In this document: one piece after another, positions 19,866 through 39,052 of the stretch
Layout: every line of letters starts with the position of its first letter
How positions within the stretch are numbered: position 1 is the stretch's first letter
Assembly: GCA_963847705.1 (NCBI GenBank)
Contig: CAWKBC010000047.1
Location: 96,001 to 160,000 of the forward strand
Length of the DNA stretch: 64,000 nucleotides
Reading direction: 5' to 3'
DNA from: an uncultured Pseudomonadota bacterium
GTDB taxonomy: Bacteria > Myxococcota_A > Polyangia > Fen-1088
Translations under genes and position numbers: made by a program
The notes under the pieces: model-generated
The model's input: the letters and a program-made list of their open reading frames with translations, nothing else
Databases searched by the model: none
What the model was told of the DNA's origin: nothing

Positions 19866-21035
19866 CTAAAGCCCGTACTTCTTCAGCTTCTCGTACAGCG
19901 TCGAGGGGGCGATGCCCAGCGTCCGCGCTGCCTGAACCTTGTTCCCGCGGGCGGCGATCAAGGTCTGCCGGATGGCCGCCCGTTCCAGCTGGCCGAGCGC
20001 GTGGCCGCCGAGCGGCAGGCGATCGAGCACCGCCTCGTCCGACGGCGGATCGATGAAACGGAGGTGGCGCGGCTCGAGGGCGCCCTGGCCCGGCTCGACG
20101 AAGGCCAGCGCGCAGGCGAGCACGTTCTTGAGCTCGCGGACGTTGCCCGGCCAGCTGTGAGCGCGCAGCGCGGCGAACGCCGTCTCGGTGATGTCGACAT
20201 CGCCGCGCCCGAGATCGTGCAGGAGGCGCGGGGCCAGGAGCGGAAGATCGTCGAGCCGCTCGCGCAGCGGCGGCAGCGTGACGACGGCTGCCGCCAGCCG
20301 GAAGTAGAGATCCTGACGAAACTGCCGCGCGGCGACCAGCGCGCCCAGGTCGCGGTTGGTGGCGGCGATGATCCGGACGTCGATCTTGCGATCCTTGGTG
20401 CCGCCGACCCGCCGTACGGAGCTGTTGTCGAGGACGCGCAGCAGGCGCGGCTGCAGCTCCAGCGGCAGCTCACCGATCTCGTCGAGGAACAGCGTTCCCC
20501 CTCCGGCGCGCTCGAACGCACCCGGGTGCTCGGCGTGGGCGCCGGTGAAGGCGCCGCGCTCATGCCCGAAGAGCTCGCTCTCGACCAGATTGGGCGGAAC
20601 GGCGCCGCAGTCGAAGACGACGAACGGCTCATCGGCGCGGGGACTGGTGTCGTGGATGAGGTGGGCAAACACGTCCTTGCCGGTCCCCGTCTCGCCGGTC
20701 AGCGTGACGGTCACGTCGGAGGGCGCCAGACGCGCCACCATGGTGTAGAGATCATGCATCGCGGCTGACGTTGCGAAGTTTTGGCCGAGGCTCCTGATCG
20801 AGGGCGCCGATGGGACCGCCGGCCCGGTCACGGGACGCAACGGTCGCAGCATGGCCCTCATAGCGGTGCTGGCGAGTTCCATGTCGTTTGCCGCTCCCGT
20901 TGAAAGGTGTTTCTCCGCAAGTGAATCAACTCCAGGGCTTATACCGGAGCCAGCGCGGGCTCGATGTGACGATTCGGGAGCTGTTCCGTTGCGAGACCGT
21001 TTCGTTTTCGGTCTCTGAAAACCGGTCGCCGACAT
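19866..21035 (-). CDS. Sigma-54 enhancer-binding protein (AAA+ + Fis HTH), no recognisable input domain
   Basis: GETGTGKD, ESELFGHERGAFTGA, LFLDEIGE, WPGNVREL, C-terminal HTH. Start may be at 20882 or later. Confidence 0.93.
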   Translation of the reverse strand: MSATGFQRPKTKRSRNGTAPESSHRARAGSGISPGVDSLAEKHLSTGAANDMELASTAMRAMLRPLRPVTGPAVPSAPSIRSLGQNFATSAAMHDLYTMVARLAPSDVTVTLTGETGTGKDVFAHLIHDTSPRADEPFVVFDCGAVPPNLVESELFGHERGAFTGAHAEHPGAFERAGGGTLFLDEIGELPLELQPRLLRVLDNSSVRRVGGTKDRKIDVRIIAATNRDLGALVAARQFRQDLYFRLAAAVVTLPPLRERLDDLPLLAPRLLHDLGRGDVDITETAFAALRAHSWPGNVRELKNVLACALAFVEPGQGALEPRHLRFIDPPSDEAVLDRLPLGGHALGQLERAAIRQTLIAARGNKVQAARTLGIAPSTLYEKLKKYGL

Positions 21036-21056
21036 TCGGAAATTGTTACAGGAGAG

Positions 21057-22235
21057 TTACAGAAAATAGTGGATCTGCAGAAACAGCGTGTTGGCCGCAC
21101 TGCCGCCGGAGGGGAACTGCACGCGCTCCATCAACTGCAGCTCGAAGTGCGCGTACGGGAACCAGTTGACCAGGAAGGTCCCGGCGGTGTACGCGTCGTT
21201 GATCTGCACGTCGACCTGGTTGCGCTCGCCGAGCGCCGTGATCATCACGCCTCGCACCGGGAACAGCGTGAAGCCGGCGGCGCCCACGATCTGCTGGGTG
21301 GAGCTGTCGCCGAGATCGGTGAAGACGTTGTTGATGACGTCGATCTCGCCGAGCAGCAGCGTGTGCAGCCCCTCGAGGTATCCCTTTCCGACGGCGCCGA
21401 CCATCAGCTTGGTCACGCCCGGATCGATCGCCACGCGCATCTGGCCGGCGATCGCGATCGTGTCCTCGTGGAAGCGTGTCTCCGCGTAGGCGGCGAACCC
21501 CCTCTCGTCGCTGCCGATGTGGCGGACGAAGTCGGGCGCGAAGACCGTCAGGTGCAGCTCCGCGTTGGGATAGACGAAGCCGCCCGAGACGTTGTACGTC
21601 TCTTCCCCCTCGTCGTACCCCAGGTCGCGGTCGATGTAGAGGATGTGCTCGGCCATCCGCAGGCCGTACGGGGCGAAGAACCGACCGACGCGGAGGTAGG
21701 GCCCGACCGCCTCCGGTTCCCACATCAGGTAGTGCTCGGGCGAGATGAGCTGCGAGGTGGAGACCGGTTGAAAGTTCTGGTACGGCACCAGCAAATCGGG
21801 ATCCCGCACCTGGCCGCGCAGGCCGAGCGACGCCAGCAGGGAGAGCCCGGCCGGTAGCGCCACCCGGCCTTGGACCTCCGCCTGCATCGGAAACACCGCC
21901 ACCGTGGGGCCGCCGGGGTCCTGGACGTCCTGATCGACGACGGCGCCGCGGAGGTCGCCCCCGAGCGCGAGCCAGCTGGGGAGGCTCACCGCGCCATGGA
22001 GAAACGCGCCGTTGCCGCCGAACGAGGAGAGCTCATCACCGACGGCGTCTCGCCCATAGCTGTTGATGAGGCCGCCGCCCGCGGGGGCGTAGTGGCACTG
22101 GTTGCAGCGGACAGCGCCGGTGGAGAGCTGGTACTGCGGGTAAGCGCGCGCCGGGCGTTCACCGAGCCAGAGCAGCGCCGCCGCAACGAGCAGGGACGCC
22201 CATTGCGTCGTTCGGAACCGCGGGAAACGAGGCAT
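21057..22235 (-). CDS. Cyc2-like monoheme cytochrome c / beta-barrel porin fusion
   Basis: Signal peptide ending ARA, then YPQYQLSTGAVR-CNQCH-..LINSYGR, then about 330 aa of amphipathic beta strands ending LQIHYFL. Confidence 0.7.
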   Translation of the reverse strand: MPRFPRFRTTQWASLLVAAALLWLGERPARAYPQYQLSTGAVRCNQCHYAPAGGGLINSYGRDAVGDELSSFGGNGAFLHGAVSLPSWLALGGDLRGAVVDQDVQDPGGPTVAVFPMQAEVQGRVALPAGLSLLASLGLRGQVRDPDLLVPYQNFQPVSTSQLISPEHYLMWEPEAVGPYLRVGRFFAPYGLRMAEHILYIDRDLGYDEGEETYNVSGGFVYPNAELHLTVFAPDFVRHIGSDERGFAAYAETRFHEDTIAIAGQMRVAIDPGVTKLMVGAVGKGYLEGLHTLLLGEIDVINNVFTDLGDSSTQQIVGAAGFTLFPVRGVMITALGERNQVDVQINDAYTAGTFLVNWFPYAHFELQLMERVQFPSGGSAANTLFLQIHYFL

Positions 22236-22340
22236 GCCGGGCCGGTGCCGCGCGTATATCCCGGAGGTGCTGGCCTGGGGGTGACGACCCTGCAACATGC
22301 TCGCGTCGGGGCCGCGCAGGTGCGTCCCACCAAGGTGTGA

Positions 22341-23777
22341 TCAGACGGCCGGCTGGCGGCGCGCACCGAGCCATCGCCGTCCGAGCTGAAGCCCCGCGGC
22401 GAGGAGCAGAACGGCGACAATCAGAAGCGCGAGTCGTTGCACCTGCCGGCGGCGAATGGCCTGCATGCCCGCCTCCATCTTGGCCAGCGCCGCCGCGCTC
22501 ACCCCGAGGCCGCGGGCGCGATCGAGGAGGCCGAGCGCGCTCGTGCGGTCACGCTTCTCCACGGCCAGCGCCCACTGCAGCGACACGGTCTTGGGATCGT
22601 TCGGCGCCAGCCTGGCGAGCTTGGCGGTGCAGGCCTCGAGGGCCGCGATGTCCTTGAACCGGAGATCCACCTCGCAGCGAAGCATCGTCGGCACGGTGCC
22701 GTCCTTCGCCTCCTCCTCCATGTGCTTGATGACGGCCTCCAGCTCCTTTCGTTCGTCGGCGGGCAGTGGCCCCGTCGCCCCCAGCACCATCGACACGAAG
22801 CGGGTGTAGTCGGCTGCCGTGGAACCGAGACGCGAGATGGCGGACCGACAGGCCTGGATCGCCTTCGGGAGGTCTCCGGCCGCTTCCAACTCGAAGCACA
22901 TCTGGCGGGGCGGATAGGCCACGGTCGGAGCCGCCTTGGCGAGCGCACCATAAAAGCGGGCCGCGGCGGCATGATCGCCCCGCTTGGACAACGACTCCGC
23001 TTTCGCCGCCAGATCCTGCAGAAGGTAGCCGTATTGCAACGGCTCGCGGGTCGCGACATCTGGTGCGGGGATGCCGGCTTCGGGATCCGCATCGTCGATC
23101 TTGAAATCGCTGAGGTGATCCTTGGCCGCCGTCATCTGCGCGGACGCCGCGCCGCCGCCCAATCCGAAGCTCACGAGGCACACGGCGAGCGACGCAACCG
23201 AGGGGACGCGCCGCCGGCGTGACCGCGCGATCCAGGCCGCGCGGCAAGCATGCACAAACGTACCCAGGAGACCGAGCCCCAGCAGGAGCCGGAAGAGTTT
23301 GACGCCCGTCGAGGGTTGCTCGGCGGCCATGAAGAGCGCCTGCTTCAGGGCGTCGCTTCGGGGCGCGACGCGGCGGAGATCTTCGACGCACGACTCCAGC
23401 AAGCTCGCGCTCCCCAGTCGGCGACCGATATCGCAGCGGGCGAGATATCCCCACGGCTGATAATTCGCCTTTCGAACCGCGGCGTCCGTCATGAGCGTCG
23501 CGATGGCGAGATCGTCCAGCGTCGGGTGCGCGGCGGGGGACACCATGGCGGCCACGTCGTCCCGCATGTCCTCCGGCATGCCGCTCAGAAAGGCGTTGTC
23601 GCAGGCCCTGCGGCTCAGGTACATGGCGCCGCCGGACTCCTCGCGCGCCAGCGCTTTCTTGCAGGTTTCACGCGAGGACATCTGACCCTCGGCGTGTGCG
23701 GGGCGCGCGGCCAAAAGCGTCGCGGCCACGAACGATGCCGACACCAACGCGAGTGCCCCAAATCTCAGCGGCCGCAT
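22341..23777 (-). CDS. Membrane-anchored protein of two homologous helical domains, each with its own signal peptide and C-terminal TM
   Basis: SP1 ends AHA, TM, RSRRRR, SP2 ends ASA, TM-RR. Internal repeat RC[DE]...LE.C...L.R.AP. Confidence 0.75.
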   Translation of the reverse strand: MRPLRFGALALVSASFVAATLLAARPAHAEGQMSSRETCKKALAREESGGAMYLSRRACDNAFLSGMPEDMRDDVAAMVSPAAHPTLDDLAIATLMTDAAVRKANYQPWGYLARCDIGRRLGSASLLESCVEDLRRVAPRSDALKQALFMAAEQPSTGVKLFRLLLGLGLLGTFVHACRAAWIARSRRRRVPSVASLAVCLVSFGLGGGAASAQMTAAKDHLSDFKIDDADPEAGIPAPDVATREPLQYGYLLQDLAAKAESLSKRGDHAAAARFYGALAKAAPTVAYPPRQMCFELEAAGDLPKAIQACRSAISRLGSTAADYTRFVSMVLGATGPLPADERKELEAVIKHMEEEAKDGTVPTMLRCEVDLRFKDIAALEACTAKLARLAPNDPKTVSLQWALAVEKRDRTSALGLLDRARGLGVSAAALAKMEAGMQAIRRRQVQRLALLIVAVLLLAAGLQLGRRWLGARRQPAV

Positions 23778-23928
23778 GGAGGCACCGTACTTATAGGAAA
23801 GGAAAGTCGCATCGTGTGACAGTTGTGAAAACACCCCGCACCGTGGCTTCAAAAGTCGGGAATCGGTGACAATCGGCAGCCCGTAGTTGTGCTAACAGAC
23901 CGCTCCCATGGTCGATGGTTGTTTGCCG

Positions 23929-25581
23929 ATGCGTCGGCTTTGGCTTGGCTTGTTGCTGTGCGGCGCAATGGCCGTTGGCGTGGTGTCTTGTAGCAATACG
24001 GACAACATGGCGCCGTGGACGGCAGGGGGACCGGGGCAGGTCGTGACCTTGAGCAAGGACGCGGGCCACGCTGACGGTGGTCGCGACGCCGCCATGCCGT
24101 CATCGACCGGAGGACACGGGGGAACGGCTCTCGGCACCGGTGGGACCGGCGTGGGAGTCGGTGGAAGCGCCGGAGCGCACGCGGCCGCGGGGGAAAGTGG
24201 TGCGGCCGGGGCCGGTGGGGTTGGTGGCGCCGCTGGAAGTGGCCCCCAGGACGATCCGTGCACGGCCTGCGAAAAATCACGCTGCAGCCATCCCGATCTC
24301 TCAGGCGACAACCCCGCCACCGGTACCGTCACTCACGCCGAGCTCGTCGCCGCCTACGAGGTCTGCTTCATAGGAACGGGCTGGCCGTCGGCGACTCTCG
24401 ATCCGTCTGTAAAATGTCTCCCGGGCGAGACGGGCACCACGGCAATCGACGGGCCCGCCAGCGGAACGGCCAAAACGATCCTCTGCCAGGCGCTTCTGCA
24501 ATGCATCCACCAATCGAAATGCCCCGGACCCGACGACAACGAAACCGATTGTTACTGTGGAGCAGGGGTCGACATCACGACTTGCCGCAGCGCAGGATTC
24601 TCGCCCACCGGCGCCTGCGCCTCGCAAGTCGCCGCGGCCCTGGAGTCGACGGAGTTTTCGACGAGTGGCACCTATTACTTCGATCCGTGCTTGGCCAATG
24701 GCGCTGCGTTTTTCATCTATGACAACTGCGACGCCAACTGCTGCGAAGAGGAATGTGGCCTCACACCGTCCGGGGACGAAGATCTGACCCTCTGCAACGC
24801 GGCCGGTACCGGTGGCGCTGCCGGTGCGGGCGGGACGATCGGCACGGGCGGGGCAACCGGTACGGGCGGCGTGCAAGGGACGGGCGGGACGACCGGCACG
24901 GGCGGGGTGGTCGGTACGGGCGGCGTGCAAGGTGCGGGCGGGACGACCGGCACGGGCGGGGTGGTCGGCACCGGTGGAGTGAGCGGCACGGGCGGGGTAA
25001 CCAGTACCGGCGGCGTGCAAGGTACGGGCGGCACGACCAGCACTGGGGGCCTGGCGGGCTCCGCTGGATCGAGCGGTTCGACGGGAGGTTCGTCGGGCTC
25101 CAGCGGGGCCGGGGGACTTCAGAATGCGACCTTCAACACGAACACGGTGAGTTGGACGCCCGACTCTGGGGCCACGATCAGCTGGAGCACGAATGACGCC
25201 GGCGGCAGCGCCCTGTCGGGCTCACTCGACCTCGAGGTGACGGGCGATCCCACGATCGGCGTCCAGGCGGCCGCCGTGCAGTGCATCTCCGCGAGCCCCG
25301 GCGCCAGCTACAGTCTCGACGCCGATATTCTGATCCCGACCGGAAGCTCGAGCTACGCCTCACTCTGGTTCTACGGCTCGAACGATTGCTCGGGCTCGGC
25401 GCTCAGCGTCGTCGCTTCGACCCCGTCGTTCACCACCGTGACCGCGTGGCAGGAGGTCTTCGCCTCGGCGTCAGCACCGTCGGGCGCTCACTCCGCCGGT
25501 GTTCATCTCCAGGTCGAGAAGTCCGTCGGACAGTCGTCAGGGGAAGCGTTGTTTGACAACGTCATGGTGACCTCGCAATGA
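23929..25581 (+). CDS. Lipoprotein: Cys-rich domain, GTGG linkers, C-terminal CBM-like jelly-roll domain
   Basis: Lipobox VVS-C; (GTGGxx)n; LQNATFN..W...QCI...WQEV...ALFDNV. Confidence 0.78.
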   Translation: MRRLWLGLLLCGAMAVGVVSCSNTDNMAPWTAGGPGQVVTLSKDAGHADGGRDAAMPSSTGGHGGTALGTGGTGVGVGGSAGAHAAAGESGAAGAGGVGGAAGSGPQDDPCTACEKSRCSHPDLSGDNPATGTVTHAELVAAYEVCFIGTGWPSATLDPSVKCLPGETGTTAIDGPASGTAKTILCQALLQCIHQSKCPGPDDNETDCYCGAGVDITTCRSAGFSPTGACASQVAAALESTEFSTSGTYYFDPCLANGAAFFIYDNCDANCCEEECGLTPSGDEDLTLCNAAGTGGAAGAGGTIGTGGATGTGGVQGTGGTTGTGGVVGTGGVQGAGGTTGTGGVVGTGGVSGTGGVTSTGGVQGTGGTTSTGGLAGSAGSSGSTGGSSGSSGAGGLQNATFNTNTVSWTPDSGATISWSTNDAGGSALSGSLDLEVTGDPTIGVQAAAVQCISASPGASYSLDADILIPTGSSSYASLWFYGSNDCSGSALSVVASTPSFTTVTAWQEVFASASAPSGAHSAGVHLQVEKSVGQSSGEALFDNVMVTSQ

Positions 25582-28500
25582 CGACGAGAACGGGCTTCAA
25601 ACGCTGGTCGCGGCCTGGTCTGTGGATCGGGCTCTGGTGCGGGCTGGCGGTCACCGCCGGTTGCGGCCGGCCGGGCGGTCCAACCGCCTACTCGTCCTCA
25701 CAAAGCGAGTTTCCCCTTCCGGACAGCGGCGCCCCTCCACCCCCGATCGGCGCCCAAACGAGTCCGACCTGCACGCCGGCGCAAACCTCGGCAGTGAACG
25801 CTTTCCCCGCCCGAACGACGATTGCGGGCGCGGCGCAGGGCGGAGGATCGCAAGACAACCTCTTCCGAACATCTGACCTCTTCAGCCTGTTCAAAACCGT
25901 ATGTGGCGGCTGCCATGTCGATGCCCCCGACGGCTCGTTCCAGGTTTCGGCCACCAGCTTCGCGACCGTCGTCTCGGGCGCCATGGGGTCCACGGTCCTC
26001 GGTCTCATCGAGTCGGACGATATCTCGACGAACATGCCGCCGTACGGCGTCGCGTATGATTCGCGCGCCTCCAGCGACGCGGTCGTCCAGCTCGCGACCC
26101 TGCTCGACACCTGGCTCATGCAAGGGAGTCCGGCGACCAGCTTCACCCTGCCGACCCAGGCGTCGAGCGCCAGCGCGGGATATGCCATGTCGGCGTCGCT
26201 CGGGGCGCAACTCACCAACCTCGGAAGCTGCATCCCCAACAAGGCCGCCGTGGGTACCAGCGCCGACACGATGGATCAGCTCGATTCCTTTTTTGCCCAG
26301 GCCACCGAGCTTCCGGCGACGCTGGACCAGACCGATTTCGTCTCGCTGGACAGCGCGACCCTGGCCAAGACGGGCGTCATCTCGTACGCGCCGACCTACC
26401 CGCTCTGGAGCGACAACGCGGGCAAGATGCGCTACGTGCGCGTCCCGGTCGGTCAATCGATCGTGTTCGACAAGGCGACGCAGAAGTTCGCGATTCCGCC
26501 GAATACCCGCTTCTACAAGACCTTCCTCAAGCAAGTGACAGACGCCAACGGGAATCCGACCTACCGAAAGATCGAGACGCGCCTCATCGTGTCGCGGCCG
26601 GACACCACGAATCCCGACGGGAGCGCCCAGCAGAACGCGCTGTTCGGCACCTACGTTTGGAACGCGGACGAATCGCAGGCAAATCTCTCGAATCAACCGC
26701 TCCGCAACAATTCGCCCTTCGCCGATCAGCTCTTCACCTATGTCACTGACGAAGCCAAGGACCAGACCATCATTGCCAGCCACCCCGCCAACCTGCCGGC
26801 GGCGGAGGACGCGGCGGGGATCACGCGCCACTACGCGGTCCCCGGATCCGAGCGCTGTGTCCAGTGCCACATGGGGAGCCCCAGCGAGGCCTTCGTCCTC
26901 GGATTCACGCCGCTTCAGGTGGCGCGCCGGCCGGACAGGCGAAGGGGGCGTTTACGAGCCCGCCGCCGGCGACGAGCTGACCCAGGTCCAGCGGCTCATC
27001 GACTACGGCGTCATCACCGGGTCTGACCTCGCAGCAGGACATCCTGCCCCTCGAGGAGGCAGAGGGGTCGCGCTCTCCGCGCAACCAATACGAGCTGAAC
27101 GCGCAGGCTTACATGGTCGGCAACTGCGCGCACTGCCACAACCCGCGCGGCTTCCCGTCGATTCGGCAGCCGGCGATCGCCGACGTCCTCATCTTCCTTC
27201 CTGGGTCAGGCCCGAACGAGGGAATCTTCCAGTTCCCGCTCGAGACGATGAGCCCCATTCGCAAGCGCGGTCTCAATCAGGACGTTCCGATCCCCTACAT
27301 CACCCCTTCGCTCTACGACATGCCCAGCGACGACGCGCTCGGGAAGTACTTCTGTCCGAACGTGGATCGATCCAGCCTGCACCTCATCGGGGGGGCTGCA
27401 ATGGGTCCTGGCTCCCTGGCGCAGCCTCATCTACCGGAACACCGATACGCCATACGATTACTTCGACGACTACACGCCATTTCCCCACATGCCGCTCAAC
27501 ACATCCGGCTACGACTGCCGTGTTGCCAGTCTCATGGGCGACTGGATGGTCAGCATTCCATCGAAGATCAAGAATCCCTCGATGCCGCAGAATGTCTTTC
27601 CCAACGGAACGTTTGCGGGAACGAACGCCAACGACGACATCCAGCCCTACCAGGAGGTCCTTCCGGGCGACAGCGATTACCCCGCCGCGGTGGGTGCCGC
27701 CGCCGCGCGGTTGCAGCAATATCACACCACGGGCTACCGGTACGGTTTCTGTCCGAGCACCTATACGGCCGACATCGTCGATCCCCTCATTGCCGACGAG
27801 GCGGCCCGGAACCTGCCCGTCCTCAGCGACGTCGCTCCTTTCTACAGCCCCACCAACCCCGACTTGCTGATCATGCCGCCCCTGACCCCCATCAGCCCCG
27901 ACTACGTGACACTCGACGATACCGATCCACCTGGTGCCTGGCTGCCACGGCGGCCGGACTGGGCCACGGCGTTGGTGACGCCAGACATCGCTTCGTTCAT
28001 TCAGGCCGAAACCGCGTCGGGCGATCTGGCGACGCCGAGCGAAGCGGAGGATCTGACGAACGTGATGACGGCCTTGGAGAACGTCACGATCACGGACGCC
28101 ACGCGTGCCGCCCTCACGCAGAAGTATCCCTTCGGACTTTGGGACACGAGCACGCCCGGCTGTAACTTCTCGGGCGTTCCGACGGCCGGAAGCTTCACTG
28201 GTGCCGACCAACCTCAGTGGATGAGCGTGGCCCCCCCGCCGTCTCCCAACGCGCCCGTCTTCGTCGAATCGACGGGGGCGGCGATCTTCACCACCGTCTG
28301 CTTCAACTGTCACGGGATCAATGCCGATTCAAAGGGATTGCTGGCGGACGAGATCAGCAGCCTCACCGGTGGAAGCGCCCGGGTGGCTGATTTCCGGGAT
28401 GGGTTCCTTGGTCCGGTCTCGGCACCCGGTATGAACCGGACGGCGGTATTCGGCGATTCCGCGACGACCTTGGGGGTGACGGTCGACGATCTCTCTGCGC

Positions 28501-29300
28501 GCTACATGGCCTGGATGGCTCTCGGCGGAACCAACAAGCACCTGCCCCAGGACGTGTTGACCCAGGTGGCGCTGGCTCCGGTGCTGGGCCAGGTTCGAGC
28601 CCACGTCGCGCAATCGGGAACTCCCGACATGCTTCGGCTGGCCTTGGACCTGTGCGAAGAGCTCGTTGGGTCGGACGCCGACCAGACCACGATCACGATA
28701 TCAAACTTGATCAATACCGGACAAATGGGCTGGAGCCAGTTCACCGGCCTCGTGGACAGCAACGGGGATGCCGAGATGTGGTTGCGGGTTTGCAACCTCG
28801 GCAACAGACAGATCGTCCGCGCGCTCATCCCTCCGGGAGGATGGACGGCGACGACGAGCGCAGGGACCTTGTTCGCCAACGGCCAACACCTGTACTGGGC
28901 GACCAGTCCAACCGGAGACGATTGGTATGGCGCCAATCCCGCGATGGACCAGCTCGGGAACATCCAGACGGGGGTGACGCCCGGGAACCTATTTCCCACC
29001 TGCGTCCTGCCGCCGGCCGCGGCTCAGCTGCCGATCGCACAGCAGGTGCTCCAGGCGTCTCCTGTGTCGGGGAAGAACGTCATTCCCTTCTGCCCGGATG
29101 GCTTCGCGGTGCCGGCCCATCAGTTGACAGTCACGGGCGCCCAGGGCAGCACGGACTTTGTGGACGGCCGGAAGTGGGCCGCGCGCGGCGCCATCAATGC
29201 CGCGCTGGCGGTGTTCCTCTACCTCGATCAGATGGAGCGCGATCCGACGCAGCGACAGCCGCTCTACACGCAGTGCAATCTCCTCGGGGGGCAGCAGTGA
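25578..29300 (+). CDS. Large multiheme c-type cytochrome lipoprotein with SO2930-family diheme core (frameshifted in this assembly)
   Basis: Lipobox TAG-C; CGGCH, CVQCH, CAHCH, CFNCH; YPLWSD.AGK.RY, KTF..IETRLI, TYVWN, AYMVGNCAHCHNP. Frames join through indels near 26935, 27020 and 27365-27420. ATGA overlap with the upstream gene. Confidence 0.75.
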
Positions 29301-30391: not shown

Positions 30392-30409
30392 GCGCCGAGC
30401 CACCAATCA

Positions 30410-30530
30410 CCCGGGCCCTTCGACGCGATGCCGTTGCCGGTCGTGTCCGCTCTGGCGGCGAGCCCGGCTGCTCCGGCTCCCGCGGACAAGAGTGCGGCGC
30501 CTGCGATCGACGGTCTCCTTCGAACCTCTT
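30410..30530 (-). pseudogene. Decayed copy of the 5' end (RBS + signal peptide) of the PstS-like gene
   Basis: Reads (R)RPSIAGAALLSAGAGAAGLAARADTTGNGIASKG versus MRTSIAGAALLLAGAGAAGLAAAADTNGSGIALNG. ATG is replaced by AGG; GAGG is retained. Confidence 0.75.
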
Positions 30531-30583
30531 TCGACCACGCTGGCCGAGCAACCTGGATTCGGCGGGGCGCAAAGCGCTCTCAC

Positions 30584-30619
30584 AAAAAAGGGCCCTTCCA
30601 CCAGACGGCGGAAGGGCCC
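30584..30619 (-). terminator. Rho-independent terminator of the PstS-like gene
   Basis: GGGCCCTTCC/GGAAGGGCCC stem followed by T6 on the minus strand. Confidence 0.85.
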
Positions 30620-30641
30620 CCACTCGCCAACTGACTTCAGA

Positions 30642-32723
30642 CTAGAACGTCTCGGTCGCCTCGGGGATGGCGACGCCGTTGACGTCGGTCAGCTGGCCCG
30701 CACCGGTGCACGCGTCGCCGTTGCTGCCGGCGCCGCAGCCACCGAGCGCCACGTTGCCCGAGCCCTGGACGTTCGGGGCCGGGGTGCCGGTGCCCTGGGT
30801 CTCCGGGTAGTCGACGCAGCTGACGCCCGCCGGAACCGGGACGAACCCGTTGTTGGTCATGGCGCTGGTCATGATGCTGTTCGTTCCGTAGCACTGGGCC
30901 AGCTCCTTCTCGTGTCCCTGCAGGTTGCCGAACCCGTAGATGGTGGAGAACCAGAGCCGGCGAGCCAGCGGGTAGAGCGGCGTGGTGCCGGGGGCCGCCA
31001 ACAGGTTCTTGATCGGGGCATCCGGGTCCCCGGTCAGGGCAAACGGCGGGGTGCCGTTGATGGTCAGACCCTTGAGCGTCTGCGGCGTCGGGTTGCCCGC
31101 GATGCCCGGGAAGCCCTGAGCCGCTTCACGACCTGCGTAGCCGACGCTGCAGGGATCGGAGTCGGTCAAGCAGCCAATCGTCGACGTGTCGTCGTTCTCC
31201 TGGCAGACACCGGTCGTTCCGGTCTCTGAGCCCACGCCGGCCGCGTAGTTGGCGCCCGGGACCACCGAGTGGATGCGGTGGAACCCTCCGACGAGGATGC
31301 GGGGCACCGGTGCGGTGGCGTCGACCGAGAACTGGAAGGTCCCGGTGCGGAAGGCAGACGGGATCTGGCTCGACGGCACCATCGTCACGAGGTTGTACCG
31401 GCGACCGTCGGGCTTGCCGCCGACGACGTCGACGCACTTGGTGGTGTTCGCAGCGATGCAGCGCGGGTCGGGCGCGCTGGCCGAACCGGCGAACGGCATG
31501 AAGCACAAGTTGCCACCGCTCGGGGGAAGGCCGTTGGGGCAGAGGAAGCCCGGGTACTTGCTGGCCTGGCTAACCTTGAAGGCCGGGAACGGGTTGCAAG
31601 CCGCGGTGCAGACCGTCTGGGGATAGAGGTCGGCAGTGTGCGTGGCGGCCGCATCGGGGATGAGGATCGGAAGAACCACGCCGAGGTCGCCGGCGAAGTT
31701 GCCGCCCGAGGTCGTCAGGTTCTTGAATCCCGAGCAGACGGTGTCCACGCCCGGAACGCAGTTCGTGCGAACCGGATCGGCGTCCGAGAAGTCGGCCGAG
31801 CCGCCCGGCGTGATCGGGGCGGGAACCGTGTTGGCGTCGACCGAGTTGCAGAACGGATTCGACTTGGCGACGGCGCCCGGGGCCGCGGGCGGGCCGAGGA
31901 GCGACGGCAGCGCGCCGATACCGACCGCCACAGCCGCGCCCTTCCCGTTGGACACGGTGCCGGCCGGCGGGTTGATGATGCTCACGAAGGCGTCCGTCGT
32001 GCCCGAGAGGTCGCTGCGGCGCCAGGCGTGGGTGATGCCGGTGGAGCAGGTCGCGTCGCCGGTGCCACAGTCGCTGGCGAACAGGTTCTTCCAGTTGCGG
32101 ATGAGCGACTTGCGGGTGTCGCTGGCGCAGCTGTAGTTTCCGTCGTGCGTGAGGCCGAAGTAGAGAACGGCGAGCGCGTCAAACGACGGCTGGTTCTTGA
32201 AGAGGGCGCCCGACGGGTCACCGAAGGTGTACGTCACGCCGCTGTCGGTTCCGGTCCCGCCCGCGAGGATGTGCATCGCCGTCGCGGAGCCGAGCCCGGA
32301 CGCGGCGCTGCTGGAGCAGCTCATGACCTGGTTGGCCGAGATCGCCACGCCGTCGAGACCGACGAGCAGCCCGGCGGTGAGGCCCGCAGAGGCCGAGACC
32401 GCCGGAGCCGTGTAGACCGAAGCGACGGTCGAGCAGAACTCGCTGTTCTTCAGCGCGCTCGACATCGGGCTCACGGCCTGAAGGCTCTGGTCCATGTTGC
32501 CGGCGCCGACGCGAGAGCCGCCGCCCTGATAGGTGATCGGGTTGGTGGTCCAATCCGAAAACTGCGCACTACATGCCGAGAAGACGTCGTTGTTGGTGAC
32601 GTCGAACAGTGTGTCCGAACCATTCAGCGCAATGCCGCTGCCGTTGGTGTCCGCGGCAGCCGCGAGACCGGCAGCGCCGGCACCCGCGAGCAGGAGCGCG
32701 GCGCCTGCGATAGAAGTTCTCAT
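30642..32723 (-). CDS. Oversized Cys-rich PstS-like (PBP2 fold) secreted substrate-binding protein
   Basis: ALNGSDTL, YQGGGSRVG, SPMSSAL, GLDGVAI, RRSDLSGTTDAF, SVGYAG, YPLARRLW. About 690 aa. GGAGG RBS. Confidence 0.75.
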   Translation of the reverse strand: MRTSIAGAALLLAGAGAAGLAAAADTNGSGIALNGSDTLFDVTNNDVFSACSAQFSDWTTNPITYQGGGSRVGAGNMDQSLQAVSPMSSALKNSEFCSTVASVYTAPAVSASAGLTAGLLVGLDGVAISANQVMSCSSSAASGLGSATAMHILAGGTGTDSGVTYTFGDPSGALFKNQPSFDALAVLYFGLTHDGNYSCASDTRKSLIRNWKNLFASDCGTGDATCSTGITHAWRRSDLSGTTDAFVSIINPPAGTVSNGKGAAVAVGIGALPSLLGPPAAPGAVAKSNPFCNSVDANTVPAPITPGGSADFSDADPVRTNCVPGVDTVCSGFKNLTTSGGNFAGDLGVVLPILIPDAAATHTADLYPQTVCTAACNPFPAFKVSQASKYPGFLCPNGLPPSGGNLCFMPFAGSASAPDPRCIAANTTKCVDVVGGKPDGRRYNLVTMVPSSQIPSAFRTGTFQFSVDATAPVPRILVGGFHRIHSVVPGANYAAGVGSETGTTGVCQENDDTSTIGCLTDSDPCSVGYAGREAAQGFPGIAGNPTPQTLKGLTINGTPPFALTGDPDAPIKNLLAAPGTTPLYPLARRLWFSTIYGFGNLQGHEKELAQCYGTNSIMTSAMTNNGFVPVPAGVSCVDYPETQGTGTPAPNVQGSGNVALGGCGAGSNGDACTGAGQLTDVNGVAIPEATETF

Positions 32724-32918
32724 ATCAAGCCTCCCTATCCTTTGTTGTGTCTTGTCGAATCGCGTTTCCCGGCCGTTCTGGCCGGGAATTCCAGGCCCTC
32801 GCCATAACAAAGATCGGGCCAAATCCCGGCGCCTCCTCCCGTCGAGCTAACCCTCGGCTTCTGCTCCCGATTTCCCGCTGAGCGCCAAAGCGCCCAACCT
32901 GGGTCCGGGAAAGACGAT

Positions 32919-33027
32919 TCGATTATCGGTGGTCTCTCCCCGATTTTCGGAGTAACCGGCCAAACGATTGCTTTCTGGAAGCTCGCCGATCCGTTCCGAG
33001 AACCGTATGCCGTTTTCCGATTATCGA
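32919..33027. promoter_or_regulatory. Two pairs of palindromic CCGA-N3-TCGG-like sites, putative enhancer-binding-protein UAS
   Basis: TCGATTATCGG 32919, CCGATTTTCGG 32940, CCGAGAACCGT 32996, CCGATTATCGA 33017; 21-bp spacing within each pair. Confidence 0.5.
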
Positions 33028-33228
33028 ACGGCCGGCGAGGCCCCGCAAAACGAGCACGCTCGCGGTGTTCCCCCTAACGGAGCCTAATGATTGAGCATTC
33101 TCGAGCCCGCCCAGCGAAGGGCTCCGCGGCCCAGGAGTTGCTCTCGGAAGGGCCGACGCTGGCGGTCTGCGCTCGGTTGCAGGGGCCAGCAATTCAACCA
33201 ATCAAGAAATTTTTGGGAGGACATCGTG

Positions 33229-34642
33229 ATGATTCGAAATTCTCTGAAACTGACGGCGCTTACGGCTGTCGCGCTCGCAGGCGGGGCGGTCGGCCTCAAT
33301 TGTTCCAAGGGAGGCGGTACTGACACGGGGAGCTTGAAGATCGCGTTCGCCAGTCGGCGGCGTCGTCCTCAACGCGGTCGCCTACAAGATCACCTCGAGC
33401 CTGACCGGCACCACGATCGTGTCGGGGACCATGAACACCTCTGACCCGAACGCGACGGCGTCGCTCGATCTCGCCCTCCCGCCGACTGCGGCGGGCGCGA
33501 CGGACACGGTCGTCCTGACCGCGACGAGCGCCGGCGGCGTGGCCTGTGCCACCGCGCCGGCCACCTTCACGGTGACCTCGGGCGCAAACACCGACGTCAT
33601 GTTGACGATGGTCTGCGGCACCTCCGTTCCGCAGACTGTTCCCGGCACGGTCGACATCACCACGACCGTTTCGTCGAACAACAGCTGCCCCAGCATCACC
33701 AGCGCGGTTGTGGCTCCTGACCAGACCTCGGTCGGCGCGACGGTCGCCGTCAGCACCACGGGCGCGGATCCGGACAGCGATCCGCTGACCTTCGCCTGGG
33801 GCCCCACGGCCAACTTCGCGGCGCCGACGGCGGCGTCCACGACCTATACCTGCACGACGGCCGGCGTCCAGCCGATCACGCTCACCATCAGCGACGGCAA
33901 GTGCAACGCGACCGTCACGCTGAAGATCACCTGCGTCGGCGCGGGCGCTGGCGGCGCGGCCGGTGGCGCGGCTGGCGCTCCGGCGACCGGCGGTGTGGTC
34001 GGCACGGGCGGCATCGTGGCGACCGGCGGCGTGGTCGGCACCGGCGGCGTGGCCGGCGCGGCTGGCGCCCCGGCGACCGGCGGCGCGGTCGGCACGGGCG
34101 GCGTGGTCGCCACTGGCGGCGTGGTCGGCACCGGCGGCGTGGTCGGCACGGGCGGGACGATGGGCGTGGCTTGCAACACCTGCGAGTTCAACGACTCGGC
34201 CCCGCCGCTGTCGTTCTGCGCGGGGACGACGATCGCCGCCTCGACGACGACGCTGTCGGCCTTCGGCTGCGACGGCTTCACCGCGGCGGCCGACGTGGCG
34301 AGCTGCAAGGCCCTCGCGGCTTGCCTTCGTGGCGCGGCCTGCCAGACGGCGATTCAGACGGCGACGTCTGACTACGCCGAAGCGGGCAGCAACTTCGACG
34401 ATCCGCACCCCTGCCTCTGCGGCGGCGTTTCGCTGGCGACCTGCCTCGGGGCGTCGACCTTCACGGGCGTTTGCCAGGCTCAGTACGTTGCCGCCTCCAA
34501 CGGTGGCAGCCCGCTGAACAACTTCGGGAACAACGCGCTGCCGATCGGCATCGCGAACAACCTGATGACCTGCGACGTCGACTCGACCGTGGCCGACAAC
34601 GGCCTCCAGAACTGCGGCGCTTCCTGCGGTCTCGGCCAGTAA
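33229..34642 (+). CDS. Lipoprotein with Ig-like + PKD-like domains, GTGG linker and Cys-rich C-terminal domain (frameshift near 33350)
   Basis: GGAGG RBS, MIRNSLK..GLN-C, continues in another frame as GGVVLNAVAYKITSS; DPDSDPLTFAW; TYTCTTAG. Confidence 0.78.
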
Positions 34643-34689
34643 CTCGCCGAGCAGCGGTGAGCCCGCGCCGGCGGGTCTGAAATCCGGCT

Positions 34690-34734
34690 AAAGGAAAGGG
34701 CGCGTTCGGGAAACCGGATGCGCCCTTTTTCTTT
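34690..34734 (+). terminator. Rho-independent terminator
   Basis: AAAGGGCGCGTTCGG-GAAA-CCGGATGCGCCCTTTTT. Confidence 0.8.
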
Positions 34735-34798
34735 GGCGGCCCTCGTAACGGAAGTGTTGCACTCCCGAAGGTCGGCGTGCCAACCTTGCCTGCGTCAG

Positions 34799-35539
34799 AT
34801 GAAGCCGAACGCAGCTCGCAATGTCACGATTTGTTTGCGCTCGGTTGTCGGGGGAATCCTGGCCGGTCTCGTGGGTTGCAGCGGTTCAATGCCGCCTGAC
34901 GTCGAGGCGAACGTCGCTTTCGTCCTTCCAAATGGATGGAACGTCGTTTCCGCCACCTATGTTGTTTGGTCGTCTGATCAGGTCGCCATCCTCGAGGGGA
35001 CTGAACGTCTCAGTGACCCCAGCGCCCCGCTCTCGCTCAGTCTGCTGGTGCCGGCGGGAAGCGGCGACCTCCTGGAGCTGACCGTGATGACCAGCGATGG
35101 CGAGTCCTGCAGCGGGACCAGCGTGCCGTTCAACGTGGTGGCAGGGGTCCCGACGAACGTCGGTCTGGTGTTGTCCTGCCTCCCCGCCAGCCCGCCCGCC
35201 GACAGCTGTCCCACGGTCGATGTGGAGCTCCCCACGCCCGCGGAGGCAAGCGCGCCTTCGGGCCGGATCACGGTCGCCGCCCTCGCCAGCGACAGCGATC
35301 CGGGGGACCTGCTCACCTTCTCCTGGGCGGCGTCAGCAGGCACCTTCGGTGACCCGGCGGCGCCATCGACCGACTACCTCTGCACGACGGCCGGCACGCA
35401 AACGCTGGTGCTCAACGTCGATGATCATCACGTTCCCAGCAGCTGTACCGAGACCTTCCTCTTGCCGGTCACCTGCCTGGCGGATCCAGGCGACGCCGGC
35501 GCCTGCACCGACGGCTGCGGGCCGCCCTCGGGTTCCTGA
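34799..35539 (+). CDS. Ig-like + PKD-like lipoprotein, paralog of the 33229 N-terminal half
   Basis: Lipobox LVG-C; SDSDPGDLLTFSWAASAG; YLCTTAG. Confidence 0.75.
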   Translation: MKPNAARNVTICLRSVVGGILAGLVGCSGSMPPDVEANVAFVLPNGWNVVSATYVVWSSDQVAILEGTERLSDPSAPLSLSLLVPAGSGDLLELTVMTSDGESCSGTSVPFNVVAGVPTNVGLVLSCLPASPPADSCPTVDVELPTPAEASAPSGRITVAALASDSDPGDLLTFSWAASAGTFGDPAAPSTDYLCTTAGTQTLVLNVDDHHVPSSCTETFLLPVTCLADPGDAGACTDGCGPPSGS

Positions 35540-35541
35540 GG

Positions 35542-36251
35542 TCAGTGCTTCACCTGCACCGTCCCGAGCGGGATCTCGACGGTGCTCGCCAGGCTCCAGC
35601 CGTCGCAGAGCACCGCCTTCACGGCTTGCGGACCCGCCGGCCAGTTCGATGAAGGGATGCTCACAGCGAAGGATCCGGGCCGGTTCATCAAGAAGGCGAG
35701 CCCGTTCACCTCGATGACCCCCAGCACGGAGTCGCCGTCGGGATCGTCGATGACGGCCGTGAAGGCCAGCTCGGCGCCCGGCGGTGGCCGGAAAGTCACT
35801 GAGCTTCAATCGTGGGCGCTCGATTGTCTGGCGGGGGCGGCCCCTTGACCGGCTGCGCAGCCCACCGTCGGAGGGTGTCGCTCTCCCATCCGGGCAGCGC
35901 GGGACTCGGTTGGGGCGGCATTCGAGGCCACATCGCGCCCTGCTGCGCGACGACGTCGGTCTCGATCTGAGGCGGCGCCAGCGAAGAGCCGGCGAGGATC
36001 GACCCACTCCCCAGCGCCAGCGCCGCGTCGCCGCAGACGGCCGCCGTGACGTCGAAGAAATCGAACCGGTAACCGCCGCCCGTTTGCCCCGCGTTCCACC
36101 CGTGGCATCCGTTGCACTCGCCACGGAAGATCGGCGCCACGTCGGCCCAGGCCGGGTTCGCAGGCTCGGCCGGCGTCGAGCTGCAGCCCATGCCAGCCAG
36201 GAGACCGAACACCAGAAGACCGGCGAGGTCGAGGGGGCGCTTCCGCGTCAT
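35542..36251 (-). CDS. Monoheme cytochrome c lipoprotein with Ig-like C-terminus (probable frameshift near 35780-35810)
   Basis: Lipobox GMG-C; WADVAPIF..CNGCH; RMPP distal Met; NRAPTI...IDDPDGD. Confidence 0.7.
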
Positions 36252-36255: not shown

Positions 36256-36822
36256 CTAGTCCGCGCCCTGGTCGCGGGCAGCGTCGGAGATCGGTCCATC
36301 GATCGCCCCAGCCTTGGCGTCGCTACCGCTGATCGATGCGTCGGCGCCCCGGAGGCCAACCGGATATTCGAACGCGCCGTTCAGGATCCAGCGCTCGACC
36401 AGCTCGATGTCGGCTTCGGGCAACGGCCGATCGGGCGGCATCCGGGGCGCGTCGCGGGCGCGCAACATGTTGACCACGCGCGAGCCGGCGGGATCGTAGG
36501 GCGTGACCAGCGGGCGCTCCTTCTCCTCGCAAACGTGCGTCCCATCCACCGTTGCGCAGGCAGTGCCGAGGGGCGCCGCGGCGTCGGGCGGAGACACCAC
36601 CCAGACCCAGAGCTGCGTCAGGCTGGCGTAGCCGTTCGCCGGTGTCGAAAAATCCAGGCCTGACACCGCGGCAGCGGGGTTGTGGCAGCTCGTGGTGGCG
36701 CAGTTCGGCTGGAAGATGGCGGGCGAGATGTAGCCCCACTCGGCCGGCCGATCGTCGGTTTGACTGCAGGCACCCGCGCCAATCACCGCGACGACGAGCG
36801 TGAGCCAATGCGCCGTGTTCAC
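36256..36822 (-). CDS. Cytochrome c-like lipoprotein with CX4CH motif
   Basis: Lipobox AGA-C; IFQPN-CATTSCH; V.PYDPAGS..RMPP..IELVERWILNGA (planctomycete cytochrome-C-like). Confidence 0.72.
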   Translation of the reverse strand: MNTAHWLTLVVAVIGAGACSQTDDRPAEWGYISPAIFQPNCATTSCHNPAAAVSGLDFSTPANGYASLTQLWVWVVSPPDAAAPLGTACATVDGTHVCEEKERPLVTPYDPAGSRVVNMLRARDAPRMPPDRPLPEADIELVERWILNGAFEYPVGLRGADASISGSDAKAGAIDGPISDAARDQGAD

Positions 36823-37005
36823 GGAGAGACCCAACCCAAGGCCGCGCGTATATCAAAGGCGACGCTCCCCCGGTGTGACGAGTGTGAAAATGTCCCGCGG
36901 CGAATTGGTCAGGCACACAGTCGGGGGGCTGAGGCCGCCGTCGTCGGGCCTGCGACGCACCCAGGCGCACGCTGGCCTTCAGCCGCACCGCTTCCGGCGC
37001 CGTCG

Positions 37006-37491
37006 TCAGGCGTGCGACGGAACGAAGCTGACCGCGCCGATCCGCACGGGCGCCGCGCCTTTCGTGATCCCCCCAGCGGCCTCGAGTTGCATCGGCTTCG
37101 TACAGGAGAGACCACCGCGGCTCATGAACCGAAGCTCGAAGTTGCCCGCCTGGCCGGCCTCGATCGACAGCGGATCGCTGGCCTTCCAGGTCGTGGTGGG
37201 AACCGCGCGCCCGTCGGCGCCGCGCAGGCGAAAGGCATCGCGGTGGATCACCAGCGGCGGCGGGGCCGCATTGCGCACCTGCACTTCGATCCTGGCCTCC
37301 ACGAGGTTGACGCCGGGAAGCTCGGTCTCGACGGTCTCGGTACAGCTCTGGCCAATGACCGCGATCTCGACGCCGCTCGGATCCGCGGCGGCGCCGCTGT
37401 TTTGAACCGGTGGATGCAGCGCGCAGGCAGGCGTCAGCGCGGCGAGAGCAATGGACGTGAAGAACAGGATTCGGGTCTGGTCAATTTTCAT
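37006..37491 (-). CDS. Hypothetical Ig-fold lipoprotein
   Basis: GGAGG RBS, lipobox TPA-C, beta-rich body; first gene after a sigma-54 promoter. Confidence 0.7.
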   Translation of the reverse strand: MKIDQTRILFFTSIALAALTPACALHPPVQNSGAAADPSGVEIAVIGQSCTETVETELPGVNLVEARIEVQVRNAAPPPLVIHRDAFRLRGADGRAVPTTTWKASDPLSIEAGQAGNFELRFMSRGGLSCTKPMQLEAAGGITKGAAPVRIGAVSFVPSHA

Positions 37492-37514
37492 GGAAGCGCC
37501 TCCATCCCCAACAA

Positions 37515-37531
37515 AAGCAGCGGCCGTGCCA
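37515..37531 (-). promoter_or_regulatory. Sigma-54 -24/-12 promoter
   Basis: TGGCACGGCCGCTGCTT on the minus strand. Confidence 0.75.
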
Positions 37532-37548
37532 TTATAGAAATTGAGCAA

Positions 37549-37561
37549 AATCAAACACTTG
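37549..37561. promoter_or_regulatory. IHF binding site
   Basis: AATCAAACACTTG matches WATCAANNNNTTR, located between the sigma-54 promoter and the UAS. Confidence 0.65.
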
Positions 37562-37581
37562 TGGCAGGCCACGTTTCTCGG

Positions 37582-37618
37582 GGGCGGAGATTCTCCCTGA
37601 GGCCCAGGAATTTCTCCC
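37582..37618 (-). promoter_or_regulatory. Tandem upstream activator sites
   Basis: GGGAGAAATTCCT-N8-GGGAGAATCTCCGCCC; same layout as 42138-42174. Confidence 0.65.
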
Positions 37619-37855
37619 TTGATGACAACTCAGCCGGTTGGATCGGCTGGCGACGGCGGAGCCGCCGGGGCGGAGGCGCGGCCGGATCGAGCGGCGGAGT
37701 CGGTGCCGGCGGGGCCGGTCCTGCCGGGGGAAGGCGTTGGCCACGCCGGAGGCGGCGGCGCTGGCGGTCAGAGTGACGCCGGCGTCGACCGACCGCGGTT
37801 CCCCGGCCCGGCGTCAGCCATCCGCCAAGGAGGCGGCGGCAAGGGTGGGCGCTCA

Positions 37856-39052
37856 TCAAAGCATCAGATTGATCTGGAGCGTGATGAGCTGGGTTCGGCC
37901 GGCGGTTGCCGGGAGCGTCACCGATCCGAGCGCCGCCATCCTGGGGCTCTGCTGATCGCCGTAGCCGTACCGGAGCTTCAGGATCAGCGTCGGGGCCGAG
38001 ATGTAGTAGGCGATCTGCCCCTCGGCCGAGAAAAAGCGATCGTCGGCGAGGGCTGTGCTGGGGTTGGTCCAGCTGATACGAACGGCGGCGTCGAGCCGCT
38101 TTGGGAGCAGCAGAACCCCGAGCTGTCCCCACAGTCCCAGCGACAGGAAGCTCGAGCTGCCCGCCGGATAGGTCCGCCGTACATAGCCCTCGCTGAGGAA
38201 CATGAGACGGCGCGATTGGAGGAACAGATCCGCGCCGCCCGCCCGTTCCTTGTTGGTCATGCCCGTCGGCGTCGCCGTGTAGAGAAAGCTGTTCGGATCG
38301 AAGTTCTCGGTCGCGTCCTGGATGTTCCCGAAGTAGCCCTGGATCGTGAAGGAGACGCGCGTCGGGGCTGGGGTGTCTCCCAGCACGTAGGCGTACTCGG
38401 CGTCGCCGGTCTTCCCCATCGGGTTGGCCGTGACGCGCCCCTCGACGAGGTAGTTCCCGGCGATCGTCGTGAACTGGCGCAGCGGCGAGCCGCCATAGTA
38501 GCCCGCGAAATAGTCAATCCGATCGGAAGCAAGCGAGCCGTACGCCGTGATCCCCTTGTCACGGCCCGTCCAGAAGTAGTCTGGGACCGGTCCCGTTTCG
38601 GGGAAAAGGCCCCGGTAAAGGCCGAAGGACTCGTGGCGTGAGAAGGGTGTGTCCTGCTGCCCGCCGCGGATGCCGAATGCCTTCACTGGCCTGACGTCGA
38701 GGTAGGCGTACAGCAGGTAGGGAGGGTTATCGGCGAGCTCGGCTGTCGTCAGGAACGTGATCCAGGGCCGTACCACGTTCCCGCCCAACGACGGGCGCGC
38801 CGAGTAGATCGCGTCGCGATTCTGCGAAACGCCGTTCAGATACCTCGGCTCGAACCGATATGCCCCCTGCAGGCCGATCCGAAGCCGGTAGCTCTCGTCA
38901 GGGGACTGGAGGACGAACCCTTCTCCAGGATCGTAGCCCGACAACCCCGGTTCTCGTTCGGTATCTCCCCCTTCCGCGTTCGCCGCCACACCTCTCCCGG
39001 CACACATCGAAACGACAGCACACGCGACAATCGCCCTTGGACCTCTCGACAT
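37856..39052 (-). CDS. OprO/OprP-like (phosphate-selective family) porin
   Basis: GFVLQSPDESYRLRIG, YAYLD..GQQDTPFSRH, GRDKGI, terminal TLQINLML. Confidence 0.72.
   Translation of the reverse strand: MSRGPRAIVACAVVSMCAGRGVAANAEGGDTEREPGLSGYDPGEGFVLQSPDESYRLRIGLQGAYRFEPRYLNGVSQNRDAIYSARPSLGGNVVRPWITFLTTAELADNPPYLLYAYLDVRPVKAFGIRGGQQDTPFSRHESFGLYRGLFPETGPVPDYFWTGRDKGITAYGSLASDRIDYFAGYYGGSPLRQFTTIAGNYLVEGRVTANPMGKTGDAEYAYVLGDTPAPTRVSFTIQGYFGNIQDATENFDPNSFLYTATPTGMTNKERAGGADLFLQSRRLMFLSEGYVRRTYPAGSSSFLSLGLWGQLGVLLLPKRLDAAVRISWTNPSTALADDRFFSAEGQIAYYISAPTLILKLRYGYGDQQSPRMAALGSVTLPATAGRTQLITLQINLML

Follow-up and report, generated by a model that had tools for sequence, protein, structure and literature searches.

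A stretch of 64,000 nucleotides (the window) from contig CAWKBC010000047.1 of the uncultured bacterial assembly GCA_963847705.1 (6.1 Mb, 85% complete, ~69% GC, 6% contamination) carries what is apparently an undescribed, conserved envelope system of the Polyangia. Its invariant core is made of two genes, encoding a PstS-fold protein and a tetraheme lipoprotein cytochrome of ~1240 amino acids (aa). Long forms add a tetratricopeptide repeat (TPR) membrane protein, lipoproteins with immunoglobulin-like (Ig) and cysteine-rich (Cys) domains, a porin with a CxxCH motif and two small cytochromes; a signal peptidase, a sigma-54 activator and a further porin are frequent members. That this gene set exists as a unit is nearly certain. 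A first-pass annotation, made from the letters alone, had proposed a new envelope system in this region; all the products that it named are present in the sequence, and so are its two sigma-54 activators. A search for conserved synteny bears the proposal out, as the homologs co-occur and are not scattered. The accompanying statement that no described system has this gene set agrees with the literature searched (mostly without subscription papers or supplements), and the accessible text of a Myxococcota preprint from 2026 does not describe the set either. Where homologs and related records carry names, these are of Polyangia or Myxococcales metagenome-assembled genomes.

The co-occurrence of both core genes was found in two families, in a phylum-wide sample and in metagenomes. 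Profile searches in the window's own family (f1, 88 genomes) yielded 42 genomes with the cytochrome and 43 with the giant PstS-like protein. Of the 88, 40 carry both genes, 43 carry neither and five carry a single one, these five being fragmented assemblies of 320–970 contigs. In a sample of 300 genomes from across the phylum, G279 was the only match to either profile, and there the two genes are neighbours. In the family of G279 (f7, 201 genomes) the cytochrome was found in 22, ten of which were fetched, and a PstS-like gene lies near it in 10/10, seven being long systems and three minimal ones. The minimal form, present in three complete genomes, combines a short cytochrome (~970–1020 aa) with a lipidated PstS-like protein of 357–393 aa carrying the same binding motifs, the two genes adjoining or lying one gene apart, with no accessory genes within about 20 kb. 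The metagenome set (252 matches, 80 loci kept, 14 of them with at least 9 kb on either side) was not dereplicated and its counts are lower bounds: the PstS-like gene occurs in 14/14 long loci, the Cys domain and the Ig module in 12/14 each, the TPR protein and the signal peptidase in 9/14 each, the activator in 6/14 and the cytochrome-porin in 5/14.

The composition of the long form was counted in 27 loci judged long enough out of 49 fetched stretches (22 were dropped); these were picked through the giant PstS and cytochrome genes, so that both count 27/27 by selection. The TPR protein and the Ig module are also present in all 27, the monoheme lipoprotein in 26, the cytochrome-porin in 25 (a 26th copy lies 3 kb beyond the fetched stretch), the CX4CH protein in 24, the activator in 20, the signal peptidase in 19, a porin of the type found at 48477 in ten, an OprO/P-family porin in six, and the porin at 37856 in the window only. 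Gene order and strands are shuffled between genera and between both families while the gene set is kept, which argues for function over passive synteny. Furthermore, the whole cluster is duplicated in G001, G006, G015, G033 and G355.

The giant PstS-fold protein (30642..32723, minus strand; 693 aa) has 22 Cys residues and a non-lipidated signal peptide. A PstS fold without adjoining pstCAB had been recognized in the first reading, and structure searches with an AlphaFold model (pLDDT 91.2, pTM 0.91) confirm it: structural alignment (VIA) to phosphate-bound PstS 4gd5 gave Z 19.7 and an rmsd of 2.9 over 243/243 residues, and the top 13 rows were all phosphate binders. The top Foldseek rows also agree with phosphate binders, at E > 0.001; that program returned no match at E ≤ 0.001 for the PstS or the cytochrome model, its Tc-toxin and other rows being chance. 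Searching the PDB by sequence with a single giant PstS missed PstS, and the profile reached it only at E 0.007. Approximately 400 residues correspond to Cys-rich insertions, each of the 22 Cys being 97–100% conserved. The phosphate-binding motifs (GSDT, GS, S and R-x-D-x-SGT), aligned to 4omb, are kept at 86–100% per residue among 116 homologs (S36 in 111, D37 in 112, T38 in 100, S70 in 113, S88 in 112, R236 in 104, D238 in 116, S240 in 105, G241 in 114 and T242 in 107); we take these residues to be equivalent to the ligand residues of Escherichia coli PstS. Distant full-length representatives have a GSDT-like motif in 104/114 and an RRxDxSGT-like motif in 92/114, and look lipidated in 4/114. 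The profile reaches 655 clusters (50% identity) with E up to 1e-10, some share of which may be ordinary PstS-like proteins. A giant PstS-like domain is also N-terminal in a 3403-aa RHS-repeat protein (P0241), which may be a fusion or a read-through.

Directly after the giant PstS gene lies an intrinsic terminator-like hairpin (30588..30621, minus strand; 15-bp stem and T run), such sites being overall no commoner than in shuffles (9 vs. 10.8). Beyond it, a decayed N-terminus (30340..30519, minus strand; 77% identity to residues 2–36) is the relic of a second tandem PstS-like gene, and tandem copies occur in G021, G279 and G573. The GC content at third codon positions (GC3) is higher in the giant PstS gene than in that of the cytochrome in 28/35 loci. 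Its codon adaptation is modest (65–75th percentile), with a reference resting on three GroEL genes, as neither of the ribosomal genes L1 and L2 could be located in this assembly.

The second core protein is the tetraheme lipoprotein cytochrome c (25578..29300, plus strand), with CxxCH motifs at 25902, 26856, 27125 and 28299. It had been described as a 4-CxxCH lipoprotein coupled to a signal peptidase I; both genes are there and the peptidase start overlaps the cytochrome stop at 29297–29300, but in the window the cytochrome is spread over four frames (25578–26924, 26935–27021, 27020–27361 and 27369–29297). The relatives have a single open reading frame (ORF) of ~1230–1310 aa with four CxxCH in 16 of the 17 examined, the 17th (G026) having three canonical motifs. 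Altogether the window contains five frameshifts over three genes (three in the cytochrome, and one each in the 33229 and 35542–36251 genes), probably assembly errors to judge from the sequences. In the model of the homolog P0153 (pLDDT 91.7, pTM 0.89), class I-like heme domains occupy residues 37–128 and 735–1169, and the sheet at 173–423 aligns to five P460/c'-beta chains with Z 4.1–5.8 over 120–136 residues, below the safe value of Z 8. The middle domain is homologous to the SO2930 (TIGR03806) diheme domain (hhalign probability 99.8%), and TIGR03806 matched the frameshifted window piece with E 6e-19 and 68.3 bits, against a curated cut-off of 313.3. An SO2930 profile of 30 Myxococcota sequences in turn met the P460 profile in a P-x-G-x4-K stretch (probability 55%, E 1.2e-4, 18 columns), and through this profile K255, kept in 116/120 cytochromes and with an equivalent Lys in 30/30 SO2930 domains, seems to fall in register with Lys78 of Methylococcus capsulatus P460, as given in the accessible part of PMC11928373.

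Conserved Met motifs (M90, M579 and M922/M960) fit hemes 1, 3 and 4, which are likely His/Met transfer hemes; heme 2, in the P460/c'-beta-like sheet, is thereby left as the likely open site. The cytochrome has no PF16694 match, and PDB sequence searches with alignment A5, the cytochrome-porin alignment A3 and the 48477 porin gave none either. The direct profile match between cytochrome and P460 being weak, the P460 link is only a lead. The SO2930 family itself occurs in 57/121 Myxococcota genomes and has an invariant Lys that seems to align with the cross-linking Lys of P460 (hits L172–L201).

Among the accessory genes, the cytochrome-porin (21057..22298, minus strand; alignment A3) combines a signal peptide, a single N-terminal CxxCH (22106) and a beta-barrel predicted from sequence and Atlas neighbours, which are unnamed and mostly from Myxococcota (nearest named cluster, PF07396, 12% of members). 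The CxxCH-porin fusion of the first reading is in the sequence and is nearly constant in the long loci, but the minimal form has none and the gene can stand apart from the system. It is in fact wider than the system, being found in 62 of the 88 f1 genomes in three similarity (paralog) classes, and a stand-alone operon (G000:C40:8059-10791) with a CX4CH lipoprotein, a CxxCH-porin and two monoheme lipoproteins may be a new small porin-cytochrome module; this suggests that the core took over the cytochrome-porin as an already existing conduit module. The third paralog (G000:C27:163447-165126) is apparently in one frame with a second CxxCH protein that ends in a sorting-like tail. The layout of signal peptide, one N-terminal CxxCH and predicted barrel with OprO/P-like neighbours is shared with Cyc2 as described in the accessible part of its report (10.1101/228056). 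Nevertheless, the AXPXFAR[Q/K][T/Y] and PXL motifs given there upstream and downstream of CxxCH are replaced here by the consensus AYPQWQLS and PAGGGL (13 aligned homologs), and the protein is partnered by CX4CH and monoheme lipoproteins; an assignment to Cyc2 was rejected on the motifs. Two small heme lipoproteins had also been proposed. One of them (35542..36251, minus strand; frameshift near 35790) does have CxxCH and MPP motifs, followed by a C-terminal Ig-like part, and is a single ORF of 224–279 aa in relatives; the other (36256..36834, minus strand; weak PF07635) is a cytochrome-like protein with MPP and CX4CH, not CxxCH, in 29/29 copies.

The predicted membrane-anchored TPR protein (22341..23777, minus strand) has two related domains, recognized by comparing profile A8 with consensus TPR structures (best E 2e-22). 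Three lipoproteins with common Ig and Cys modules, already noticed at the first reading, were confirmed. That at 23908..25581 (plus strand) carries the signature Cys domain, a Gly/Thr linker and a C-terminal beta domain (22/27 loci), its stop overlapping the cytochrome start; that at 33229..34642 (plus strand; frameshift near 33348) carries an Ig/PKD pair, a Gly/Thr linker and the signature Cys domain; and sequence comparison identified a paralogous Ig/PKD lipoprotein lacking the Cys domain (34718..35539, plus strand). The Cys domain (~100 aa, without family or named Atlas neighbour, 1 to 6 copies per locus) occurs in 42/45 genomes with the system and 3/43 without it, and is absent from the three loci with lipidated PstS. 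It may tether the giant PstS. Single records that may be gene-calling artefacts show it fused to a PstS-like fragment (P0279) and, in two other representatives, an Ig module at the end. The signal peptidase I (S26 family; 29297..30391, plus strand) has extra N-terminal membrane segments and the Ser and Lys motifs, and exceeds the cut-offs of PF10502 and TIGR02227; the idea of a dedicated enzyme is tempered by its being optional, and the genome has a housekeeping-like S26 peptidase on another contig.

The sigma-54 activator at 19866..21035 (minus strand; PF00158 and HTH_8) lacks a receiver domain and is likely the regulator of the cluster. A sigma-54-like element of the GG-N10-GT variant lies ~95 nt before the PstS-like start (32805..32822, minus strand) and recurs at 16/20 parsed starts, being missing from both G279 copies and from the second copies in G021 and G356; the pattern was derived from these sequences, so that its genome background (2 hits) is only indicative. 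Another such element, GG-N10-GC (33126..33143, plus strand), precedes the divergent Ig/Cys lipoprotein and recurs in 13/15 divergent pairs. The search for promoters gave none of sigma-70 type, and no RNA record was listed for 25600–35400.

The region was first described as one block bracketed by sigma-54 activators. With five units on alternating strands it is not a single operon, and the bracketing holds on one side only: the 19866 activator is a cluster member, but the second, in the 39257–48034 regulator/kinase/RND block, is absent from the clusters of relatives, and this block was rejected as a member. In relatives the 48477 porin and an MFS gene come directly after the cluster, and in the window an 11-kb insertion (37006–48034) separates the cluster from this porin. 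It contains a lipoprotein (gene 37006), a porin with weak likeness to OprO/P, a sigma-54 regulator paired with a kinase, and TolC-RND components. Gene 37006 was discarded as a member; it is 87% identical to a paralog that lies on contig C8 in a module of Rrf2, porin and sulfate ABC genes (read by eye). The OprO/P-like porin at 37856, previously counted as part of the system, has no close relative in the other loci and belongs to this unrelated insertion. The alginate lyase and MFS/TolB-like neighbours were excluded as well, their synteny being confined to genus g1. The variable porin slot is instead represented by the porin-like outer-membrane protein at 48477..50129 (minus strand), found in or beside the cluster in relatives and displaced here by the insertion; it has no match in Pfam, NCBIfam or PDB and presumably resembles the 'DcaP-like' proteins. 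Its family is unclassified, and a paralog lies beside uronate-utilisation-like genes on C30.

A link of the system with phosphate has some support in the sequences, namely the intact binding motifs and the pst-type porins of six loci. The best OprO/P-family copy per locus is 48–66% identical to the porins of this genome's pst operons and far from its sulfate-module porin; four of these six loci form one clade, and G355b also has a sulfate-type porin. Next to the cluster, G035 has a canonical pstS and L226 a pstC-like gene. Of the canonical pst operons of this genome, those on C36 and C37 look like near-duplicates, a possible redundancy of the bin. On the side of sulfur, genes for cysE, a family 2A encapsulin-like protein and cysteine desulfurase (names read by eye) adjoin the cluster in two lineages (G001:C2, G015:C207, G006:C134, G033:C42, G279:C13, G529:C23 and L261), perhaps as a source of cysteine for the Cys-rich proteins. 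Divergent loci repeatedly contain matrixin-type metalloproteases (2/27 and 3/14; L056:14428-15348 and L076:15241-16848, among others), and arylsulfotransferase-like and DUF2911 genes are recurrent too.

Different parts of this gene set recall known systems. The PstS fold and binding motifs, together with the occasional pst-type porin, are shared with PstSCAB and its OprO/P porins, but the giant protein is 2–3 times the size of PstS, has ~22 Cys and is tied to a cytochrome; the system was rejected as a PstSCAB transporter, with no pstCAB in the cluster and three canonical operons on other contigs. The middle domain of the cytochrome is that of the SO2930 diheme cytochromes, extended by two heme domains and large insertions, and its partner is a PstS-fold protein, whereas the usual SO2930 partners are beta-helix or propeller proteins. 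AioX/AioAB combines an oxyanion-binding protein and a redox enzyme under sigma-54 control, a similar layout, but no molybdoenzyme or sensor kinase was seen in the cluster. TasA/SipW is the example of an operon-specific signal peptidase, and a fibre operon of this type was rejected because the peptidase is optional here. The beta-sheet before CxxCH and the Lys in register with McP460 Lys78 are weak similarities to P460/c'-beta as described in the accessible part of PMC11928373, although here they lie in one domain of a 1240-aa tetraheme lipoprotein. Compared by description, the Geobacter ext cluster comes closest among known systems: extHIJKLMNOPQS encodes a phosphate-porin-like protein and c-type cytochromes and is implicated in oxyanion (selenite/tellurite) reduction, but its genes are for rhodanese, Rieske, cytochrome b and multi-heme proteins, with no PstS-fold protein listed in the accessible text (PMC5877670).

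Sequences and structural models lead us to propose, tentatively, that redox chemistry at or near the cell surface sets free phosphate or a similar oxyanion for capture by the PstS-fold protein. The sigma-54 activator would turn on both the giant PstS gene and the divergent gene for the Ig/Cys lipoprotein; the giant PstS would be exported, aided by the cluster signal peptidase where present, and held by the Ig-linker-Cys lipoproteins. The P460-like open heme would be the reactive site, wired by the three His/Met hemes to the CX4CH and monoheme lipoproteins and to the cytochrome-porin across the outer membrane, and the bound oxyanion would pass through an anion porin to Pst transporters encoded elsewhere. 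In a bolder form, the giant PstS would present a phosphorus oxyanion or phosphate-bearing mineral to a heme enzyme of P460 type with a Lys cross-link, wired across the outer membrane by the new cytochrome-porin module; this would constitute a new class of surface oxidoreductase, but it appears improbable. Several observations weigh against redox-assisted capture: 21 of the 27 genome loci are devoid of an OprO/P porin, and in none of the 14 long metagenome loci does a pst gene (pstC in 0/14) or such a porin lie within 10 kb; apart from the cluster, this genome already encodes three canonical pst operons (C36, C37 and C40); and sulfur-starvation genes adjoin the cluster about as often (six genome loci and L261). 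At two motif positions the window copy of PstS differs from the consensus, with R71 in place of G and S89 in place of R. Resemblance to P460 is weak, with Z no higher than 5.8, a Foldseek E of 0.19 and 16.6% for the direct profile match, and four hemes in 1240 aa are sparse for a mineral-reducing wire. The cytochrome-porin is absent from the minimal form, so that a trans-membrane conduit is not essential. Finally, kinship among genomes and loci means that the counts are not independent.

The same core could instead oxidize or reduce an oxyanion, the PstS-fold protein giving a reduced or toxic analogue (phosphite, hypophosphite, arsenite/arsenate) to the P460-like heme and the electrons going to respiration, much as AioX and ArxX are oxyanion binders serving arsenite oxidases. 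The minimal pair of binding lipoprotein and cytochrome, the layout of one open and three transfer hemes and the sigma-54 control would all suit such an enzyme; the binding motifs nonetheless match phosphate-type PstS, reading the loci by eye (no systematic search was made) brought up no molybdoenzyme or ars/ptx gene, and the P460 hemes known so far use hydroxylamine, NO or peroxide according to the accessible part of PMC11928373. The idea is rather unlikely. We consider it just as unlikely that the giant PstS is an abundant, disulfide-rich subunit of a surface coat or fibre, matured by the signal peptidase and the TPR protein, anchored by the Ig/Cys lipoproteins and helped by cytochromes in oxidative folding or cross-linking. 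Its own promoter-like element and terminator, tandem copies, conserved Cys, raised GC3 and the co-orientation of cytochrome, signal peptidase and PstS in many loci would fit this role, against which stand the modest codon adaptation, the absence of the peptidase from 8/27 loci, the retained ligand site and the unanchored, lipidated PstS of the minimal form.

A sensor, in which phosphate binding gates the redox state or ligand (NO, peroxide) binding of the cytochrome and the signal passes via the TPR membrane protein to the receiver-less activator, would explain the constancy of the TPR protein in long loci, an activator without sensory domain and the presence of canonical Pst systems elsewhere in the genome. 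It is unlikely too, no kinase, cyclase or anti-sigma factor being conserved in the loci, the minimal form lacking the TPR protein and the activator being missing from 7/27 loci. Less probable still is a surface defence against nitrosative or peroxide stress by a P460/c'-beta-type heme with a merely co-regulated phosphate binder: the P460-like fold with its Lys and the chemistry of the family, in the accessible text of PMC11928373, point that way, but the unbroken pairing with a PstS-fold gene would be left unexplained and the genome carries a separate canonical P460-family gene. The notion of a co-inherited island of exported proteins with no common function is hardly credible and largely refuted; although three members (porin, signal peptidase and activator) are variable and insertions of unrelated genes are common, the gene set survives shuffling across genera and two families, whole clusters are duplicated and the signature families are nearly confined to the system.

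Phosphate capture fed by surface redox chemistry, if true, would directly couple a phosphate binder to heme redox and thus offer a mechanism for the microbial release of bound phosphorus in soils. The system is bounded, occurring in about half of one Polyangia family (42–43/88 genomes) and a tenth of another (22/201), and its two-gene minimal version, available from three complete genomes, is suited to expression in E. coli. If the P460 link is true, the P460 superfamily would include the widespread SO2930 family as a branch so far overlooked, and the link would supply the first mechanistic hypothesis for this large and uncharacterised family.

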